From: Acidobacteriota bacterium
Lineage (GTDB): Bacteria; Acidobacteriota; UBA6911; RPQK01; JAJDTT01
Assembly: GCA_965217775.1 (NCBI GenBank)
Contig: CBDCJH010000002.1
Coordinates: forward strand, 2,688,001 to 2,752,000
Length of the DNA: 64,000 nt
Reading direction: 5' to 3'
In this document: positions 12,349 to 57,978 of the stretch, one piece after another
How positions within the stretch are numbered: the stretch's first letter is position 1
Layout of the letters: each line of letters starts with the position of its first letter
Position numbers and translations under genes: made by a program
The notes under the pieces: generated by a model
Told to the model about the DNA's origin: nothing
The model's input: the letters and a program-made list of their open reading frames with translations, nothing else
Databases searched by the model: none

Positions 12349-12834
12349 ATGGAGAAGGAACCAGTGAGGTACAGAGAGTCGATTTGGAGCGTCCCGGCGA
12401 CATGGCGGGACGCCTACTTCAAACTTTTTGTGGCTCTCGTTATAGTGACCACGGCTCTGGTCGTCTGGCACGAGGTGGCCAGTGGGACGACGGACGGCAA
12501 CCTGGAGACGTTCCTCGCCATCGCGCGAGGGCTGTCTCCCGTGGTCGTCGTGGTCGCTGCCTGGAGCGTGGTTTCCGTGGAGGTGGGAAGAATGTTTTCG
12601 GAATGGTATCTGAATCGACGTTACGCCAAGGGACGTGCCAAGGGGCGTGCCGAGGGGCGTGCCGAGGGACGTACCCAGGGGCGTGCCGAGGGACGTACCC
12701 AGGGGCGTGCCAGAGAGCGCAAGCGCTGGGAATCCTGGAACCGCGCGCGCATAGCCGCCGAGGAACAAGGAAACAGTTTCACCGAGCTACCTCCGGCGGC
12801 CGCTGACGATCATCAGACCGGTGAGCGCGCGTGA
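12349..12834 (+). CDS. Hypothetical membrane protein: 2 TM helices plus a C-terminal (GRAE)n repeat module (cassette copy 1)
   Basis: Hydrophobic segments FKLFVALVIVTTALVVW and LSPVVVVVAAWSVVSV, then MFSEWYLNRRYAKG(RxxG)6RARERKRWESWN; start uncertain (12328/12349/12364). Confidence 0.6.
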   Translation: MEKEPVRYRESIWSVPATWRDAYFKLFVALVIVTTALVVWHEVASGTTDGNLETFLAIARGLSPVVVVVAAWSVVSVEVGRMFSEWYLNRRYAKGRAKGRAEGRAEGRTQGRAEGRTQGRARERKRWESWNRARIAAEEQGNSFTELPPAAADDHQTGERA

Positions 12835-12942
12835 AAGATTCGCCGGATCCTGACTGGCCCCGAAATTCGGACGGGGGAGGATAGGCCGTCGGCAGTTTCC
12901 AGTCTTTCGCTTGAAATTTGGAAATTCTTAAGGGTGGGAAGA

Positions 12943-13137
12943 ATGTTTTCGGAATGGTATCTGAATCGACGTTACGCCAAGGGGCGTGCCGAGGGACGTG
13001 CCCAGGGGCGTGCCAGAGAGCGCAAGCGCTGGGAATCCTGGAACCGCGCGCGCTTGGCCGCCGAGGAACAAGGAAAAAGTTTCACCGAGCTACCTCCGGC
13101 AGCCGCTGACGATCATCAGACCGGTGAGCGCGCGTGA
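12943..13137 (+). CDS. Small hypothetical protein, C-terminal module only (cassette copy 2)
   Basis: Near-identical to the C-terminal part of copy 1 with 2 RxxG repeats; ATG preceded by TAAGGGTGGGAAGA. Confidence 0.55.
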   Translation: MFSEWYLNRRYAKGRAEGRAQGRARERKRWESWNRARLAAEEQGKSFTELPPAAADDHQTGERA

Positions 13138-13238
13138 AAGATTCGTCAGATCCTGACTGAACCCGAAATTCGGACAGAGGAGGATAGGCTGCCGGCTGAA
13201 TCCAGTCTTCCGTTTGCAATTTCTTAAGGGCGCGAAAA

Positions 13239-13445
13239 ATGTTTTCGGAATGGTATCTCAATCGTCGTTACGCCAAGGGGCTTGCTGAGGGACGTTCTGA
13301 GGGGCGGGCTGAGGGGCGGGCAAGAGAGCGCGAACGCTGGAAAACCTGGAACCGCCTCCGAATGGAGGCCGAGGAACAGGGCAAGAGGTTCACCGAGCCG
13401 CCTCCGGCAGCCGTTGACGATCGGCTGCCCGGAGAACTCACCTGA
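13239..13445 (+). CDS. Small hypothetical protein, C-terminal module only (cassette copy 3, diverged)
   Basis: MFSEWYLNRRYAKG with 3 xxEG repeats, then RARERERWKTWN..EEQGKRFTEPPP; frame kept despite nucleotide divergence. Confidence 0.55.
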   Translation: MFSEWYLNRRYAKGLAEGRSEGRAEGRARERERWKTWNRLRMEAEEQGKRFTEPPPAAVDDRLPGELT

Positions 13446-13557
13446 AACCGGAATACGGAGAACGAACGACCGCAAGACCGGTTGCATTCAAACCAGGACG
13501 ATTTGAAACCCCGGTGAGCCTTCCCCTCACCGGCCGGCGCGGGTGTGGTTTATGGCG

Positions 13558-33436: not shown

Positions 33437-35119
33437 ATGCCCGAGAAGAGATCGGATGTCCAAGGCGACCGGCTGCTGCTGCGGGAAGCCCGCGCCCAAG
33501 GCCGGGGCGCCCTGCTGAAGACCTATTTCCGGCTCTCGGGTCCGGGCTGGCTTCAAAGCGCCCTGACCCTTGGAGGCGGTTCCCTGGCCAGTGGCCTCTA
33601 CCTGGGAACCCTCTCCGGGTTCGCCCTCCTCTGGCTCCAACCGGTGGCCATGATCCTGGGCATCGTCATGCTGGGCGCCATCAGCTACGTCACCCTCTCC
33701 ACGGGCGAGCGTCCCTTTCAGGCCATCAACCGGCACGTGAGCCCCCTCCTGGGATGGGCCTGGGCCATCGCCAGCCTCATGGCCAACATGGTCTGGTCAC
33801 TGCCCCAGTACAGCCTGGCTACCAGCGCGGTCCAGCAGAACCTGCTGCCGGATCTCTTGGGAGCGGACGGCGTCACCGGCGACCTGGGCGGCAAGGTGAT
33901 CATCTGCGCCGTCATCCTCGCGGTCACCATCTCCATCACCTGGCTCTACGGCAAGGGCGGCTGGGGGGTGAAGGTGTACGAGGGGACCCTGAAGGTGGTG
34001 GTGGCACTGATCGTCCTCTGCTTCTTCGGCGTGGTCGTGAAGATGGCCCTCTCCCCGGGCGCCCTGAACTGGGGAGCCGTTCTCTCCGGGTTCGTCCCCG
34101 ACCTGAGCGTCCTGATGCATCCGACCGCTACCTACACCCCCTTCCTGGAGGCGGTCGGCGAGACCTCGCGCGAGTTCTGGAGCGGCAAGATCCTGGGGAT
34201 GCAGCGCGACGTCATGATCAGCGCCAGCGCCACGGCGGTCGGGATCAACATGACCTTCCTGCTGGGCTACTCCCTCCTCTCCCGAGGCTGGAACCGGGAA
34301 TTTCGCGGTCTGGCCATCTTCGACCTGTCCACCGGGATGCTCATCCCCTTCCTGCTGGCCACCAGTTGCGTGGTCATCGCCTCGGCCAGCCAGTTTCACA
34401 CCCGTCCCGCGGCCGGACTGGTCTCGGAGGCGGAGGGGCCGGCGCCTCCTGCCAAATTGGTGGCCGGCTACCAGGGCCTGTTGAGGGAGCGGATTGCAGC
34501 CACCAGTCCGGGGCTGTCCGCGGAAGCGAGTAGCCGGGCGGCCGAGGAGTTGCCGCAGGCGGAGAAGGAAATAGCCGCCATGCTGGTGAAACGGGACGCC
34601 TTCAATCTGGCGGAGTCGCTGGAGCCTCTCACCGGCAGCCTGTTCGCCCGGGTGGTGTTCGGAATCGGCGTGGTGGGAATGGCCCTCTCCAGCATCGCCA
34701 TCCTCATGCTGATCTCGGGGTTCGTCGTCTGCGAGATGCTGGGACTGGAGCCCAAGGGGCGGGCCTATCGGCTGGGCTCACTGGCCGCCGTGGTAGGGGT
34801 GCTGGGGCCCTTCTTCTGGAAGGATGCCCAGTTCTGGCTGGCGGTCCCCACGTCGATCTTCGGGATGGCGCTACTGCCCATTGCGTACATCTCCTTCTTC
34901 TTGCTCATGAACCAGCGGAAGCTGTTGGGCGAGAACCTGCCCCGGGGAGGAAAGCGAGTGGTCTGGAACGTGATGATGGCCCTGGCCACCGGGTTCGCCA
35001 CGTTGGGCTGCGCCTACAGCATCTGGTCCCGGATCGGGGTCCCCGGATTGGTCGCTGCCGGGGGATTCGTGCTGCTGGCGGTGTTGTTCCGGTTTCGACG
35101 GAAGGGCAGTACGGCCTGA
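33437..35119 (+). CDS. NRAMP-like divalent metal cation transporter family protein
   Basis: SGPGWLQSA.TLGGGSL, LLWLQP, TAVGINMTF and about 11 TM segments. Confidence 0.7.
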   Translation: MPEKRSDVQGDRLLLREARAQGRGALLKTYFRLSGPGWLQSALTLGGGSLASGLYLGTLSGFALLWLQPVAMILGIVMLGAISYVTLSTGERPFQAINRHVSPLLGWAWAIASLMANMVWSLPQYSLATSAVQQNLLPDLLGADGVTGDLGGKVIICAVILAVTISITWLYGKGGWGVKVYEGTLKVVVALIVLCFFGVVVKMALSPGALNWGAVLSGFVPDLSVLMHPTATYTPFLEAVGETSREFWSGKILGMQRDVMISASATAVGINMTFLLGYSLLSRGWNREFRGLAIFDLSTGMLIPFLLATSCVVIASASQFHTRPAAGLVSEAEGPAPPAKLVAGYQGLLRERIAATSPGLSAEASSRAAEELPQAEKEIAAMLVKRDAFNLAESLEPLTGSLFARVVFGIGVVGMALSSIAILMLISGFVVCEMLGLEPKGRAYRLGSLAAVVGVLGPFFWKDAQFWLAVPTSIFGMALLPIAYISFFLLMNQRKLLGENLPRGGKRVVWNVMMALATGFATLGCAYSIWSRIGVPGLVAAGGFVLLAVLFRFRRKGSTA

Positions 35120-35161
35120 GTTGGGGGCTTTCGGGTCGTCCGTGCTCGTAAGAGTCGGCGG
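35065..35161 (+). repeat. 97-bp direct repeat, copy 1 (3' end of the transporter gene, downstream sequence, start of a REP)
   Basis: Aligns without gaps to 37472-37568. Confidence 0.88.
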
Positions 35162-37219: not shown

Positions 37220-37400
37220 TTTGTGACACTTCGTAACGACCCGTACACCAACCGCATCGCGCGCAGGCTGAGCGAGTTCCGAAATAGCCGCATCGTGGAT
37301 CTGCTTATAGATGCGGTCAACGGACAGGAACGTGTATTCGCTGTCGTAGGTGCCGGCCGCGTTGTCATGCAGGAACCTGCCTCACGCGCGACGATTCTTC
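37220..37400 (+). pseudogene. Gene fragment resembling a TraB-like/erythromycin-esterase-fold C-terminus
   Basis: RNSRIVDLLIDAVNGQERVFAVVGAGRVVMQEPA resembles R...i...l......v..vvG..H with the His replaced; no convincing N-terminus. Confidence 0.3.
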
Positions 37401-37471
37401 CTGTTGATCTACTACCCAACGTTGAAATGCCGAATCCGCGACCATTCATCGGCGCCGTCAAGAGAACGTGC

Positions 37472-37568
37472 ATTCGTATTGCTTGCTGTGTTGTTTCGGT
37501 TTCGCAGGAAGGGCGGTACGGCCTGAGTTGGGGGCTTTCAGGTCGCCCGTGCTCGTAAGAGTCGGCGG
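37472..37568 (+). repeat. 97-bp direct repeat, copy 2
   Basis: Encodes FVLLAVLFRFRRKGGTA* versus FVLLAVLFRFRRKGSTA* in copy 1. Confidence 0.88.
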
Positions 37569-37574
37569 CAAGAA

Positions 37575-39491
37575 GTCACGGTAGGAACGGCAGTTTCCTG
37601 CCGCCCCCCGCACAGATCCGGACGTGCCCGTTAAGGCATCCGGCTCCTACCTTGGGTGTGGACGGCCAGCGGAACCGCTGCCCCGGCCACGGGTGACGGA
37701 TCTTCACGGATGGCCAGAGCAATTCCGTCATCCGTCGCAACCGTCCCCAGCTGAAGCGGTCGCGTTGGGACCGGCGGCGCAAGGCTCGCAGCCACCGCCG
37801 TTGCAGCAGATAGCAGAAACCTCGCAGCCAGCGCGTACTCCCCGGAACCGCAAAATAGTTCAGCCAGCCGTTCAGGACCCGGCTCAACCATTTCCCGACC
37901 TCCCAGTGATCCGCGTGCCGTTGTCTCCACAGCCTCTCCCCCACCCGTTGCAGGGTCCGGTTCATCCGTTTCGCGCTTGGCTTCCGCCCCAGCCGGAAGC
38001 GTCCCTTCCGGGTCTTCGCACAGTAGTGCGTGAACCCCAGAAAGTCGAACGTCTCCGGTTTCCGCTCCCCGCGTCGTCGCCGATCCGCTGCCGCAAATCG
38101 TCCGAACTCCACCAGTCGCGTCTTTTCCGGGTGCAGTTCCAGCCCGAACTCGGCGCACCGTTCCCCCAGGTCTCGGAGAAACCGTTTCGCGTCCGCCCGT
38201 CTCTGGAATCCGGCCACGAAGTCGTCCGCATATCGCACCAGGATCGCTTCGCCTTTCGGGACTCGTGGGCGCCACGTCCGATGGAACCATTGGTCCAGCA
38301 CGTAGTGCAGGTACACGTTGGCCATGACCGGCGAGACGTTGGCGCCCTGAGGCGTCCCTCTCCCCGTGTCCGACCAGGTCCCTTCTTCCATCACGCCGGC
38401 GTTCAGCCACTTGCGCAGCAGCCGCAGCACCCGCCGGTCTCCGATCCGCCGTTCCACGAACTGCATCAGGCAGTCCCGGTCGATCGCATCAAAGAACGTC
38501 CGAATGTCCGCGTCCACGATCCCATTGACTTTCCGCCGTTCGATCCCGTAGGCCAGTGCATCCAGCGCGTCATGCGCCTTCCGTCCGGGCCGGAACCCGT
38601 AGCTGAGCCCGAGAAACTCCGCCTCGTAAATCGGCGTCAGGAGCTCGTCCACGACTGCCTTCTGGAGGATCTTGTCCTCCAGCGCGGCCACGCCGAGCGG
38701 TCGTGTCCTTCCATCCGGCTTGGGGATGTTCACCCGCCGGACGGGAGGCGCTCGGTACGCGCCCCGGTGCACGCGGCGATGCAGGTCCAGCAGTCGCTCT
38801 TCCAGCTTCGCCCCGTACTCCTCCCACCGACCCCATCGATTCCCGGCGCAGCATCCTTCCTCAGTCCGAGGTAGGCGCGGCGCAGGGCCTCCACAGTGAT
38901 ATGGTGCAGCAGCGCGGTCAGTCGCTCCTTGGGGTTTCTCGCGATCGCTCGCCGTATCCGGTCCACCGCTTGGGACACGCTCCCCCGACTCTGCGTCCGG
39001 CGCGTGCTTTGGCTCACCGAATTCCCCTTGGTTCCATCCCTTCGCTCCACCGGCTCCGCCGAGGGTCGCCCCTCTTTGTTCGCCCGCTTCATCGCTACTA
39101 TGGATGAATCCGATTGCTTCGTTCCGTCCATCATGAGTTTCGGGTTACTCCTTTCTCATGCGACCCCGGGGCGACCCCCCGGCGTGAAATGAAGCCCTCC
39201 CAGGTCCCGGAACAAGATTTTGCGTACGTGCCTGGGTTCTTTGACACCGCGGAGCCCGGCCGGCCCTCACCTGGGCGGTCCAGCCGGTGTTGCCTTCGAC
39301 CGCGACTACAGCCTCGGCACTTCCGATCATGGAGCTTTCGATGCTCAATAGCCTGCCCATACGCACCGCTACCGACGCTTCGCCGACACCCTCACGGGTG
39401 CCCACGCACGGCTCGCGGAGAAACGTGGATGGTTAGTCCTTCGTTTCGGCGGACTTCCACCGCCTATCTTGTGCCAGTTAGCCTGGCGCAC
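37575..39491 (-). mobile_element. Group II intron (IIB-like, probably bacterial class E, no endonuclease domain) inserted in a REP palindrome
   Basis: 5' end GTGCG at 39491; domain V GAGCCGGATGCCTTAACGGGCACGTCCGGATC and domain VI ending CTACCGTGAC at 37575; flanks rejoin to GGAGCGGCGGCT|TTCTTGCCGCCGA. Confidence 0.92.
37576..39134 (-). pseudogene. ltrA: Group II intron reverse transcriptase/maturase, frameshifted near 38828
   Basis: N-part ...LTALLHHI..AAPGIDGV and, in another frame, WEEYG..RRVNIPKPDG.TRPLG, SYGFRPGR, DADI..FFD, GTPQG, RYADDF, FDFLGFTH, GWLNYF; one base is missing after GTC. Confidence 0.9.
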
Positions 39492-39531
39492 AGCCGCCGC
39501 TCCCAGTCGGCGACTGGGAAGTCGTCGCTCC
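39492..39531. repeat. REP half (intron 5' exon with IBS1/IBS2) plus an adjacent REP
   Basis: AGCCGCCGCTCCC followed by TCGGCGACTGGGAAGTCGTCGCTCCC. Confidence 0.8.
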
Positions 39532-39533
39532 CG

Positions 39534-41330
39534 TCACCAACCCAGGGCGTAGCAGGCTCGGCGGGGGTCGGCGCCGGTGGCCAGGATTCCCGTGGCCGGA
39601 TCGCGCCAGGTGAGGGTGGCTCCCATTCCGCAGACCAGCGCCGGCACGACGTTGTGGCCCAGTCTCCCCAGCTCTCGGCGGGTGGACTCTGAGAACGCCT
39701 CCTCCAGCGAGAGTTGTCCCGGGAAGTAGACGTGGGGATAGAAGGAGTTGCGGAGGCTGTCGCTCCCGAAGCGGGGCGCCTCGATGGATTCCTGGATGTT
39801 CATCCCGAAGACCAGCACGTTGAGCAGGAGTTGCAGGTTGGCCTGGGCTTGATGGTCGCCGCCGGGGCAGCCGACGGTCATGACCGGTTGCCCGTCCTTC
39901 ACCACCAGGTAGCCGACCAGGGTGGTCCGGGGCCGCTTTCCCGGTTCCAGACCGTTGGGGTGGTCCGGCTTCAGGAAGAACATCTCGCTGCGGGTGCTCA
40001 GGGCACAGCCGATCTCGGGGAAGAAAACCGACTTGCCGAAAGACCCGCCGCTGGGCGTGGCACACACCAGGTTTCCATGATGGTCCACCACGGCGATGTG
40101 GGTCGTCCCCTGCTCGGCGTGGCTGGGTCCCTGAAGGGGCGAAGGGGATGGGGCCTCCTGGGACGGACGTTCCCGGGAGTCTTGTGAGTACTTCCAGGGA
40201 TTGCCGGGCGGCGGCGTGTCGGGATGCGCCTTGCCGGGGTCGAGGAGCCGGACCCGCTCGGCCGCGTATTCCATGGAGAGAAGTCCATCCAGGGGAACGC
40301 GGGCGAAATCGGGGTCGCCGTAGAAGGCTTCACGGTCGGCGATCGCCAGCTTCAATGCCTCCACCACGGTGTGGACGTAAGCTGGCGAGTTGTGGCCCAT
40401 GGCCCCGAGGTCGAAGTGCTCCAGGAGATTCAAGGTTTGCAGCAGGACCGGGGCCTGGGACCAGGTCCGCTGGCAGCAGATTTCGTAGCCCCGGTAACGG
40501 GTGCGGGCCGGCTCCTCGAACTTGGCCCGGTAGCCCGCCAAGTCCTCGGCGCTGAGAATCCCTCCGACACTGCGGGCGCATTCCACTAGGGTGCGGGCGA
40601 GGCGTCCCTGGTAGAAGTCTCGCCGGGCGGCCCGGATCCCCTCGATCCGATCCCGTGATCCCCCCGCGTCACAGGCGGCCAGCCGCCGCAACGTTCGGGC
40701 CAAACCGGGTTGAACCAGGAGTGTACCGGGACGGGGGAGTTCTCCGTTCTCGTAGAAGATCTCGTTGCCGCCGGGCGGGTACTGGTCGAACTGGTCCCGG
40801 GTGGCCTGGGAGTCCAGAGCGTCGATCATGTACTCGTAGTGCGGAAATCCCGCCTGAGCCAGGTGGATGGCCGGCTCCAGGACCTGGGACAGCGGGAGTG
40901 TCCCGTATCGCTCCAGGAGAGACAGATACCCGTCCACCGCGCCCGGAACCGTGAAGGAGAGATGGGCGAGGGGTCCGGGACCGGTGGGGATCTCGTCCAG
41001 TCCCTGACTTCGAAAGAAGTCGACCGTGGCCTGTTCGGGAGCCGTTCCCTGACCGCTCAGCGAGAGGAGATCGCCGCTCTCGGCGTCGTAGAGCATGAAG
41101 ACCGACTCGGCCGCAAGCGAGTACGACGCGACCGGTTCGGTCACGGCGGCCGCGAACCCGGCCGCTACCAGGGCGTCGAAGGCATTCCCGCCCCCCAGCA
41201 GCATGCCCATCCCGGCCATGGAGGTCAGGTAGTGGCCGCTGGAGATGACCCCTTGGGTGGCGTAGATCACCGGCCGGCCGGTGGGGGGCCGGCCGCTGGC
41301 GTCGGTCTGGGACGGGATCGGTCGAACCAT
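39534..41330 (-). CDS. ggt: Gamma-glutamyltransferase family protein (Ntn hydrolase)
   Basis: GGNAFDA, TVPGAVDG, FYQG, EALKLA.ADR..FYGDP, GTTH..VVD..GN.V..T.S, PGKRPRTTL, PGGD.Q, GADPRR. Confidence 0.88.
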   Translation of the reverse strand: MVRPIPSQTDASGRPPTGRPVIYATQGVISSGHYLTSMAGMGMLLGGGNAFDALVAAGFAAAVTEPVASYSLAAESVFMLYDAESGDLLSLSGQGTAPEQATVDFFRSQGLDEIPTGPGPLAHLSFTVPGAVDGYLSLLERYGTLPLSQVLEPAIHLAQAGFPHYEYMIDALDSQATRDQFDQYPPGGNEIFYENGELPRPGTLLVQPGLARTLRRLAACDAGGSRDRIEGIRAARRDFYQGRLARTLVECARSVGGILSAEDLAGYRAKFEEPARTRYRGYEICCQRTWSQAPVLLQTLNLLEHFDLGAMGHNSPAYVHTVVEALKLAIADREAFYGDPDFARVPLDGLLSMEYAAERVRLLDPGKAHPDTPPPGNPWKYSQDSRERPSQEAPSPSPLQGPSHAEQGTTHIAVVDHHGNLVCATPSGGSFGKSVFFPEIGCALSTRSEMFFLKPDHPNGLEPGKRPRTTLVGYLVVKDGQPVMTVGCPGGDHQAQANLQLLLNVLVFGMNIQESIEAPRFGSDSLRNSFYPHVYFPGQLSLEEAFSESTRRELGRLGHNVVPALVCGMGATLTWRDPATGILATGADPRRACYALGW

Positions 41331-48711: not shown

Positions 48712-50043
48712 ATGACTCAGAGCGTTGCCACGATAGCGGAAAGTTTTCGAGCCCGGACGGCTCGTTCGCGCGAACTGTACGAGGGAGGGACCTCGTATAC
48801 GGCGGGTCCGGCCAAGGGGGCCTACTACTACCGTCCCTATCCTCTCACCATGGACCGGGGAGAGGGCACTCGTCTCTGGGACGTAGACGGGAACGAATAC
48901 CTGGATTGCGCCAATCACCACACGGCCCAGGTGCTCGGGCACAACCATCCTCGAGTGACGGAGGCCGTCTACGCCCAGATTCCCAGGGGCTTGGCCGTGG
49001 GCGCTCCCATGGGGACGGAAGCCCCCATCGCCGAGGAGATGTGCCGAAGGGTCGACTCTCTGGACCGGATCCGCTTCGTCAATTCGGGAACCGAAGCCAC
49101 CCTGCACGCGATTCGGCTGGCTCGCGGATTTACCGGGAAGACGAAGATCGCCAAGTTCGAAGGGGGCTATCACGGCAGTCATGATCCGGTGGAGGTCAGC
49201 GTGGCGCCGCCTCTGGCCAAGGCGGGCCCGGCCCACGCGCCCAACTCGGTTCCGGGGGCGGGGGGGAGTTCTCCCAGCGTGGCCGATGAGGTCGTGGTCC
49301 TGCCCTATGACGACGAAGAGGCGGTGGAACGGCTCATCGTGGAGAACCGGGAAGATCTGGCCTGCGTCATTTTCGATCCCAAGTGCGGGATCCTGCCCAT
49401 CCGGCCCGAATTTGCCCAGGCGGTGCGACGGATCACGCGGGAGAACGGCGTCCTCCTCATCTTCGACGAGATCGTCGCCTTCCGCACGGCTCCGGGAGGG
49501 CTCCAGGCCGTATTCGGCATCGACCCCGACCTGACCTGCTTCGGGAAGATCGTGGGCGGCGGGTTCCCCGTCGGTGCCTTCGGGGGGCGGGCCGACCTGA
49601 TGGATCTCCTGGACAGCAGCAAGCCGGGGACCGGGTTTTCCCAGAGCGGGACCTTCAGCGCCCATCCCCTGGCCATGGCGGCCGGCCTGGCGATGCTCCA
49701 GGAACTGACGCCCGAAGCCTGCGATCACCTGAACCGGCTCGGGGACCGTCTCACCAGCGGCCTCAACCGGATGTTCGCCCGCAGAGGCATCATCGCCCAG
49801 GCCGTCAACACCGGCTCCGTCTTCAGCATCTACTTCGGCGACCACGAGCTGCGGAACTACCGCGACCTGGCCGCCCTCGACAGTTCACTCGTGGCTCCCA
49901 CCTTCCTGGCGCTGCTGGAGGAGGGCTACTTCGTGGGTCACACGCTGGGCATGTGTGCGCTCTCGGTGCCGATGACCGACGGCGATATCGACGGACTGAT
50001 CGAAGCGACCGGCCGGGCCATCGTCCGGGCTCAAGCCGAATAG
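48712..50043 (+). CDS. Class III aminotransferase, glutamate-1-semialdehyde 2,1-aminomutase-like
   Basis: DVDGNEY.D, RFVNSGTEAT..AIRLAR, KFEGGYHG, LLIFDEIV, FGKIVGGGFPVGAFGG, GTFSAHP. Confidence 0.88.
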   Translation: MTQSVATIAESFRARTARSRELYEGGTSYTAGPAKGAYYYRPYPLTMDRGEGTRLWDVDGNEYLDCANHHTAQVLGHNHPRVTEAVYAQIPRGLAVGAPMGTEAPIAEEMCRRVDSLDRIRFVNSGTEATLHAIRLARGFTGKTKIAKFEGGYHGSHDPVEVSVAPPLAKAGPAHAPNSVPGAGGSSPSVADEVVVLPYDDEEAVERLIVENREDLACVIFDPKCGILPIRPEFAQAVRRITRENGVLLIFDEIVAFRTAPGGLQAVFGIDPDLTCFGKIVGGGFPVGAFGGRADLMDLLDSSKPGTGFSQSGTFSAHPLAMAAGLAMLQELTPEACDHLNRLGDRLTSGLNRMFARRGIIAQAVNTGSVFSIYFGDHELRNYRDLAALDSSLVAPTFLALLEEGYFVGHTLGMCALSVPMTDGDIDGLIEATGRAIVRAQAE

Positions 50044-50187
50044 GAGCGGCGACTTTTTTGTCGCCGACCAGGGGGGTCTAGGGGGGACGGCCGTCCCCCC
50101 TCGGCGAAGCGTCTTCCAACCGGGCGAAACGAAGAATGGGCGACTAGAAATCGCCCCTCCCAGTGGGCGATTGGAAATCGCCCCTCC
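50043..50187. repeat. REPIN-like unit plus an extra REP between convergent genes
   Basis: GGAGCGGCGACTTTTTTGTCGCCGA ... GGGCGACTAGAAATCGCCCCTCC, GGGCGATTGGAAATCGCCCCTCC; both flanking TAG stops abut the GGAG feet. Confidence 0.82.
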
Positions 50188-57811: not shown

Positions 57812-57829
57812 CCTATTTAAACAGACAAG

Positions 57830-57978
57830 CGGCGACTTTCTTGTCGCCGAACAGGGGGGCAGGGGGGACGGAGTCCCCACTCTACACATTCCGGCCACGG
57901 AATTGCATAGCAGTAAAAGAAGAGCAGGCGACAAGAAAGTCGCCTGTCCCAATGGGCGGCAAGAAAACCGCCCGTCCC
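57830..57978. repeat. REP/REPIN-like cluster (first REP split by the IS110)
   Basis: CGGCGACTTTCTTGTCGCCGA ... CAGGCGACAAGAAAGTCGCCTG, GGGCGGCAAGAAAACCGCCC. Confidence 0.8.

Follow-up and report, generated by a model that had tools for sequence, protein, structure and literature searches.

The intron RmInt1 of Sinorhizobium meliloti reportedly prefers the lagging-strand template, and its homing site is said to lie within an insertion sequence gene. Its relatives are described as having diverged in target specificity (PMC4615759, PMC4181065). A 2015 review distinguishes three target specificities of bacterial group II introns, namely homing sites, terminator motifs and attC sites. Group IIC introns are described as having a short exon-binding site 1 (EBS1) of 3-4 bp, no EBS2, and insertion just after a stem-loop. 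Introns of types IIE and IIF comprise 450-700 nt without their open reading frame (ORF) and are characterized by a 5-nt loop of domain V and an extra DId3 bulge, together with an intron-encoded protein (IEP) that lacks the endonuclease (passages of Nagy et al. 2013, PMC3753933); the same passages suggest that the clear pairing of EBS2 with intron-binding site 2 (IBS2) serves homing and not splicing, and do not describe targeting of repetitive extragenic palindromic (REP) sequences. Several insertion sequences (ISs) that target REPs have a 100% REP association in a table of PMC1525189, and the same table lists a group II intron of Pseudomonas putida KT2440 with two of nine copies (22%) associated with REPs, with no EBS analysis there. 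This entry was the only one found in the literature on REP-homing group II introns; subscription journals and supplementary files were out of reach, so a precedent may exist. The subject of the present analysis is a group II intron on the minus strand of a 64,000-nucleotide stretch, the window, from an Acidobacteriota bacterium (GenBank assembly GCA_965217775.1, contig CBDCJH010000002.1, positions 2,688,001 to 2,752,000). An earlier note on this DNA had proposed that the intron homes to a REP by EBS-IBS pairing, a proposal supported by the site counts, covariation and orthologous empty sites reported below. The intron very probably represents an active family of IIB-like, endonuclease-less introns that home to REPs by EBS-IBS pairing in a manner dependent on the replication fork.

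The identity and boundaries of the element were established with covariance models and comparison of copies (Table 1). The match of the window intron to RF02005 scored 166.4 bits (E 3e-48; gathering score 49). Domains V and VI aligned end to end with RF00029, with the last model position at 37575; at 37.5 bits (E 4.5e-6), the match falls slightly short of the gathering score of 40. The 5' start, GUGCG, is at 39491 on the minus strand, and the bulged A within CCUACC of domain VI is 7 nt from the 3' splice site. Since the terminal CGUGAC is common to all ten full copies of the source assembly, the RF00029 match ends at the same base and empty sites are found at orthologous loci, the 3' end is fixed at 37575. 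The 3' end, the 5' exon GGAGC-G-GCGGCU, the EBS1 and EBS2 letters with their positions and the AGC triad of domain V given in the earlier note were all borne out. A consensus structure computed by RNAalifold from ten sequences, eight of them relatives with only 41-57% IEP identity, contained 57 pairs, 38 with compensatory changes, and placed EBS1 and EBS2 in the same positions as the Rfam alignment, in which AGUCGC occupies the terminal loop GUAGUCGC and GCUCC the bulge AAAGCUCCAUGAU. The EBS bases assigned previously by eye therefore fall in loops, which is terminal for EBS1 and internal and one-sided for EBS2, and EBS3 was added at 39242. The ribozyme core, domains V and VI, the IEP and EBS1-EBS3 identify the element as a group II intron with IIB-like exon recognition. 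The small size and the IEP, in which no endonuclease domain was found, fit types IIE and IIF, the domain V loop being ambiguous on this point with a reading of 4-6 nt in the RF00029 alignment.

The source assembly (6.43 Mb) contains ten full-length copies of the intron with 99-100% identity. It also has four ORF-less derivatives of ~640-755 nt, a copy with an internal deletion and a single 5' fragment. In nine of the ten full copies the insertion divides the loop of a REP hairpin between its first and second bases, although the exact REP core makes up ~0.03% of the genome; 14 of the 15 copies with two readable flanks are within a REP. The target conforms to GGAG-N-GGCGRCT/TTCTTGYCGCC, where the slash denotes the insertion point. 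Across the genome, 109 exact copies of the core GGCGRCTTTCTTGYCGCC were counted, and a looser pattern gave 197 matches compared with 76 in the control. Around the exact core, GGAG is kept at positions -5 to -2 and is followed by a variable base, a layout corresponding to IBS2 and then a spacer. REP units recur at a spacing of 28 nt 18 times in the genome, often in tandem arrays, and the window copy occupies the second of two such tandem units. By ORF calls that are crude in this G+C-rich genome, 62 of the 106 cores on the chromosome (C2) lie in the 9.5% without ORF calls. Since REPs are numerous and, on these calls, mostly between genes, they would offer many harmless landing sites. The two further REP copies in the window that had been reported near 50043 and 57830 exist, with exact spans of 50045-50076 and 57828-57859. 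At the occupied sites, IBS1 is GCGACU in five of the ten full copies, which pairs perfectly with EBS1, GCGGCU in four and GCGAUU in one, the last two each with one G-U wobble; the prior assertion that EBS1 fits the family consensus better than the site occupied in the window is thus upheld, since five copies have the perfect match and the other five a wobble.

The same pattern was found when the analysis was extended to the genus, in which the intron family is present in seven of eight other genomes and in none of six genomes of the sister genus. Together with the copies of the source assembly, 39 further loci from related genomes were tabulated. The set of 45 two-flank copies excludes ten loci without a usable end: L064, L072, L075, L078, L082, L088, L090, L093 and the 5' fragment of the source assembly, for all of which no 3' end was found, and L089, for which no 5' end was found. 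REP-family sites hold 41 of the 45, of which 38 have a perfect inverted repeat of at least 6 bp across the junction and three are degenerate REPs. Eight of the nine 5' exons readable among the excluded loci are also of REP type. The flanks of homologs, named earlier as a check, are therefore REP-family hairpins in the large majority, both in the source genome and in the genus.

Orthologs of the gene upstream of the window copy were identified in five related genomes, and in three of these (L125, L127 and L128) the gene is followed by uninterrupted REP units and then by the same downstream sequence, GACTCTTACGA, as a precise insertion without target duplication predicts. These empty sites, from three other assemblies, bear on the suggestion that the REP halves belong to a composite mobile unit or arose as an assembly artefact of repeats. 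The genomes are metagenome assemblies, and the fragmented assembly G008 breaks at intron ends, as an artefact might. However, the flanks vary among copies in their heads (GGAGC, GGAGA, GGAGG and GGACA), arms (GCGACU, GCGGCU and GCGAUU) and loops, and uninterrupted REPs outnumber introns approximately tenfold. This explanation is scarcely credible.

The assignment of the exon-binding sites is further supported by covariation across the genus. EBS1 AGUCGC is found with IBS1 GCGACU, GCGGCU or GCGAUU, and the other EBS1/IBS1 pairs are AGUCCC/GGGACU, AACCCC/GGGGUU, AAUCGC/GCGAUU, GGGUGC/GCACCC, GGUCGC/GCGACC and GGAUGC/GCAUCU. EBS2/IBS2 is GCUCC/GGAGC, CCUAC/GUAGG or CAUGC/GCAUG, the last accompanied by EBS1 GGAUGC. 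EBS3 and the first base of the 3' exon are A:U at the main REP, G:C at the GTAG REP and U:A in genome G009, with pairing in 43 of 44 copies. The GTAG REP is a second family in the source genome, GTAG-GGGCACCC-CTTGT-GGGTGCCC, with ~31 hairpins and the classical GTAG tag, in place of which the main family has GGAG. It is occupied by S3, an ORF-less copy in which EBS1 GGGUGC faces IBS1 GCACCC and EBS2 CCUAC faces IBS2 GUAGG. Overall, at least six combinations of EBS1, EBS2 and EBS3 are seen, each shifting along with the REP variant. When the EBS positions are masked, the tree separates the full-length copies from the ORF-less ones as two clades; AGUCCC is present in both, indicating that one combination arose twice by convergence. 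Genome G007 has seven AGUCCC copies and 561 matches to the REP variant GGGGGACT(3-7)GTCCCCC, compared with 27-56 in each of four other genomes and none in controls. The 561 matches have the appearance of a lineage-specific burst. Taken as sequence comparisons, the data suggest that in sublineages all three EBSs were re-tuned to different variants of the REP, among them the classical GTAG-tagged one.

The covariation also bears on whether the distribution reflects survivorship only, with the intron inserting at loose matches and persisting in harmless extragenic repeats without adaptation to REPs. The mostly extragenic location of REP cores, as judged by the crude ORF calls, would be expected under such a process, and one full copy, designated c7, does reside in an ORF. 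The 12-nt match is nonetheless specific: a strict search of C2 for GGAGC-N-GCGRCT gives 101 matches, of which 89 are REP forms. Moreover, changes in the EBSs track the REP variants and the commonest variant of each genome, with one change convergent. Survivorship without adaptation is consequently considered very unlikely.

The orientation of the copies was compared with the direction of replication. The cumulative GC skew of C2 has a minimum near 4.95-5.0 Mb and a maximum near 1.65 Mb, and dnaA is at 5.011 Mb. In the source assembly the sense strand is the leading-strand sequence for all ten full copies (binomial p = 0.0017) and for 15 of 16 copies overall, the exception being S4, which is near the terminus. 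The corresponding counts in relatives were 11/11, 12/13, 8/8 and 4/4, for a total of 50/52 including the source assembly. Since the sense strand equals the leading-strand sequence, the strand bearing the IBSs is the lagging-strand template. Orientation of the REPs was rejected as the cause because the cores are distributed 56:50 between strands, and transcription was rejected because 51% of the crudely called genes lie on the leading strand and only four of the ten full copies have an upstream gene in the same orientation. The bias is thus accounted for neither by the targets nor by transcription. By analogy with introns without an endonuclease, which the 2015 review describes as primed from replication-fork strands, the bias fits endonuclease-free retrohoming at replication forks.

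The strand bias and the hairpin could also be read as structural targeting of the type employed by group IIC introns, with the REP stem-loop recognized as a folded hairpin and base pairing secondary. A perfect inverted repeat is at the junction in 38 of the 45 sites, the cut is always at the boundary between the 5' arm and the loop, and the bias points to single-stranded DNA, in which hairpins can form. Against this, the register of the pairing is enough to explain where in the hairpin the insertion lies, and hairpin-less sites are used when the IBSs match, as for c7 and for an integrase gene in G009 (see below). EBS1 forms 6 bp and EBS2 covaries, whereas group IIC has 3-4 bp and no EBS2, and insertion is within the loop rather than after the hairpin. 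Domain V has the triad AGC; group IIC introns reportedly carry another. With its 6-bp EBS1, its covarying EBS2 and EBS3 and an insertion point within the loop of the hairpin, the intron falls outside group IIC, in agreement with the distinction drawn in the earlier note, and primarily structural recognition is improbable.

The results are most consistent with homing by base pairing, for which the following pathway is proposed. The homing site of the family would be the REP GGAG-N-GGCGRC-U/UUCUU-GYCGCC, located through 12 bp of RNA-DNA pairing in which the GGAG head would be bound by EBS2, the hairpin's 5' arm and the base that opens the loop by EBS1, and the next loop base by EBS3. Reverse splicing would then occur after the first loop base and before the second. 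The IEP being presumably unable to cut the opposite strand, the RNA would enter the transiently single-stranded lagging-strand template at the fork, and the nascent lagging-strand end would prime cDNA synthesis, a step modeled on introns lacking the endonuclease and on the RmInt1 literature.

Several points weigh against homing to REPs by this route. Four of the 45 two-flank copies are outside REPs: c7 and three copies in G009. Copy c7, the tenth full copy, is on the sense strand of an ORF at GGAGA-U-GCGGCU/G, with EBS2 paired at 4/5 positions, EBS1 at 6/6 and EBS3 unpaired; a Pfam search with the two ORF pieces flanking it found no family. The three G009 copies belong to a sister intron (1912 nt; loci L073, L074, L087 and L103) inserted, with near-identical flanks, into codon 4 of a gene of the phage-integrase family (93 bits), from which the gene is taken to be part of a multi-copy element. 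By the rule used for hairpins these sites have a 5-bp hairpin with G-T pairs, and they were counted as non-REP for their position at codon 4. Homologs with the same EBSs in other targets had been named as evidence that would speak against the proposal; the non-REP homologs found have either other EBSs (G009) or an imperfect match (c7). The excluded locus L075, with its 3' end unset, also looks non-REP. EBS2 is often paired at only 4/5 positions, as at GGAGG and GGAGA sites, and passages of PMC3753933 report EBS2 as dispensable for in vitro splicing of IIE/IIF introns. A folded REP would hide IBS1, which is in the hairpin stem, and since ~88% of perfect targets are REPs, a preference for REPs cannot be told apart from the use of a 12-nt target coinciding with a REP. 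In the strand counts for relatives, dnaA was taken as the origin and the terminus was assumed to be its antipode. The copies are not independent, with orthologous pairs (S3/L091 and S4/L092) and duplicated DNA (S1/S2 and the three G009 copies). The genomes being metagenome assemblies, with an estimated contamination of 7.5% for the source assembly, some single-base indels and the numbers of copies may be wrong. Among 15 of the 19 joints in public-run contigs none spans 37575-39491. The interpretation as a whole is computational.

An intact IEP of 519 residues is encoded by the other nine full copies (for example L002:1496-3055). It matched TIGR04416, a model of group II reverse transcriptase (RT)/maturase proteins, with 351 bits (cut-off 300) and RVT_1 with 121 bits, while profile searches found no endonuclease (HNH) domain. 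Relative to the nine sister copies, the window copy has gained an A at intron position 271 and is one base short at position 662. The broken IEP recognized in the earlier note is accordingly real in the assembly, with two 1-nt indels. Contigs from four public runs show intact-type bases at both places, a result that only reflects the majority of copies. Judging from its reading frames, the window copy would need the IEP of the nine intact copies, and so must the four ORF-less derivatives. The frame of the IEP crosses domains V and VI, and its stop codon at 37576-37578 leaves a single base ahead of the 3' splice site. In distant relatives such as L108 the stop is just ahead of domain V, and therefore the last ~24 residues may be a chance extension. 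With respect to classification, class F is equally possible as class E for the IEP; an intron of Solibacter (Acidobacteria) is assigned to class F in one paper.

Distant relatives, with IEP identity of 41-57%, were found in assemblies of Bryobacterales, other Acidobacteriota, Thermoanaerobaculia and Binatia. All matched RF02005, and RF00029 scores were 41-47 bits. Their 5' exons differ from the REP of the source genome, with EBS1 read by eye only. Two of them, L108 and L109, share a target headed GTAG/ATAG. Within the genus, the ORF-less copy S4 (C2:1903834-1904588 of the source assembly) is interrupted inside a hairpin of domain I by an insertion of 112 nt, which is bounded by long terminal inverted repeats and resembles a miniature inverted-repeat transposable element; since the same insertion and the same flank are present in a second genome (G010, locus L092), the copy is old and inherited. 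Genome G014 has eight ORF-less or fragmentary copies (L065-L072), and no close IEP gene was detected there in a scan with a few peptide patterns, so narrow that absence is not implied. In public sequencing runs, the intron is covered by contigs at ≥99% identity, including two RNA libraries labelled sponge metagenome. The sponge-metagenome RNA libraries (four runs of one study) contain 60-64% of the sampled words of 37300-39800, a hint as to habitat but no proof that the stretch is expressed.

The source genome also has three matches to PF01797, the Y1 transposase family, with 39, 31 and 22 bits. The first two genes, which resemble REP-associated tyrosine transposases (RAYTs), have the motif MPNHVHVLF in common, and a GGAG-headed REP-like hairpin adjoins each. 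RAYT-linked REPs are recognized by a GTAG or CGTC tag according to an abstract. It could be speculated that the intron and REP families form a coupled system, in which the REP would be a required substrate giving an endonuclease-less IIB-like intron access to DNA when extruded or single-stranded on the lagging template, and in which sublineages would repeatedly and convergently re-tune their EBSs to the REP subfamily latest amplified by the host RAYT, making the intron a hyperparasite. This proposal is tentative and somewhat doubtful; if true, it would provide a natural, readable retargeting series for introns of the IIE/IIF type. As to other repeats in the window, the 97 nt downstream of the intron (37472-37568) are repeated with 90% identity 2.4 kb away at 35065-35161, that copy ending in an uninterrupted REP of the GGCGGTTTCCAACCGCC variant, and three tandem repeats of ~300 nt with 75-92% identity and internal short GGGRCGTGC repeats are found at 12566-13447.

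Table 1. Features of the intron, its insertion site and associated genes. Coordinates are those of the window unless another contig is named.
Feature	Position	Strand	Basis
Whole group II intron, 1917 nt, 5' GUGCG ... CCUACCGUGAC 3'	37575..39491	-	Ten full copies, empty sites, Rfam matches
Ribozyme domain I core, Rfam group-II-D1D4-6	39235..39457	-	RF02005, model positions 1-225; RNAalifold consensus agrees
Domains V and VI, AGC triad, bulged A in CCUACC	37575..37648	-	RF00029, model positions 1-77
EBS1, AGUCGC, 8-nt terminal loop	39302..39307	-	Loop from Rfam and RNAalifold; covaries with IBS1, seven variants
EBS2, GCUCC, 13-nt one-sided internal loop	39331..39335	-	Loop from Rfam and RNAalifold; covaries with IBS2
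EBS3, A after GGUGUC, unpaired, coordination-loop region	39242	-	Three-state covariation with first 3'-exon base
IBS1, GCGGCU, 5' exon -6 to -1, REP hairpin 5' arm plus one loop base	39492..39497	-	
IBS2, GGAGC, 5' exon -12 to -8, conserved GGAG head of REP unit	39499..39503	-	
3' half of split REP: IBS3 (U, 37574), remaining loop UCUU, 3' arm GCCGCC	37564..37574	-	Ligated sequence is the intact REP at orthologous loci
Neighbouring, slightly degenerate REP unit GGGAGCGACGACTTCCCAGTCGCCGACT, directly after stop codon of upstream gene	39505..39532	-	28-nt tandem with occupied unit
IEP N-terminal piece, first ~100 codons, then out-of-frame readthrough	38730..39134	-	1-nt deletion near 38829/38830
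Frame with rest of IEP: RT domain (YADD) and maturase region	37576..38772	-	ORF list; intact form elsewhere
RAYT-like Y1 transposase genes, source assembly (G000)	C2:5635223-5635945 (39 bits), 4665591-4666268 (31), 2626191-2627141 (22)		PF01797

By analogy with known systems, a dispersed extragenic palindrome thus appears to be the homing site of a base-pairing group II intron, and the element seems to work like an RmInt1-type homing intron with the REP as its site. In common with RmInt1, a class D intron lacking the endonuclease, it combines an IEP of RT and maturase regions, targeting through EBS1, EBS2 and EBS3, and a multi-copy homing site; it differs in that the site is an extragenic palindrome of ~28 nt and in that the RNA belongs to RF02005 and is probably of IIE/IIF type. 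With 50 out of 52 copies in one orientation and no such bias in targets or genes, the genomic support for fork-dependent retrohoming is unusually clean. The ORF-less copies of ~640 nt, the IIB-like ribozyme and the endonuclease-less IEP are in keeping with IIE and IIF introns, and the six or more retargeting events, one of them convergent, should be useful for deriving the targeting rules of these small introns. As for group IIC introns, the endonuclease is lacking and repeated extragenic DNA hairpins are occupied by many copies per genome, whereas the covarying pairing of 6+5+1 bp and the insertion within the loop are unlike that group; a many-copy, low-damage lifestyle so far linked to IIC would here be coupled to a specificity readable from the RNA. 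The use of the REP as a dedicated landing site is shared with ISPpu9, ISPpu10, ISPsy8, ISPa11 and IS1397. The intron adds a retroelement to these exploiters of REPs and raises the question of how its insertion affects REP spread. In contrast to the REP-targeting ISs, which are DNA transposons or driven by recombinases, it is an RNA-guided retroelement. The P. putida KT2440 intron was likewise noted beside REPs; in the family described here the association extends to 9/10 full copies in the source genome and 41/45 in the genus, and is accompanied by covariation.

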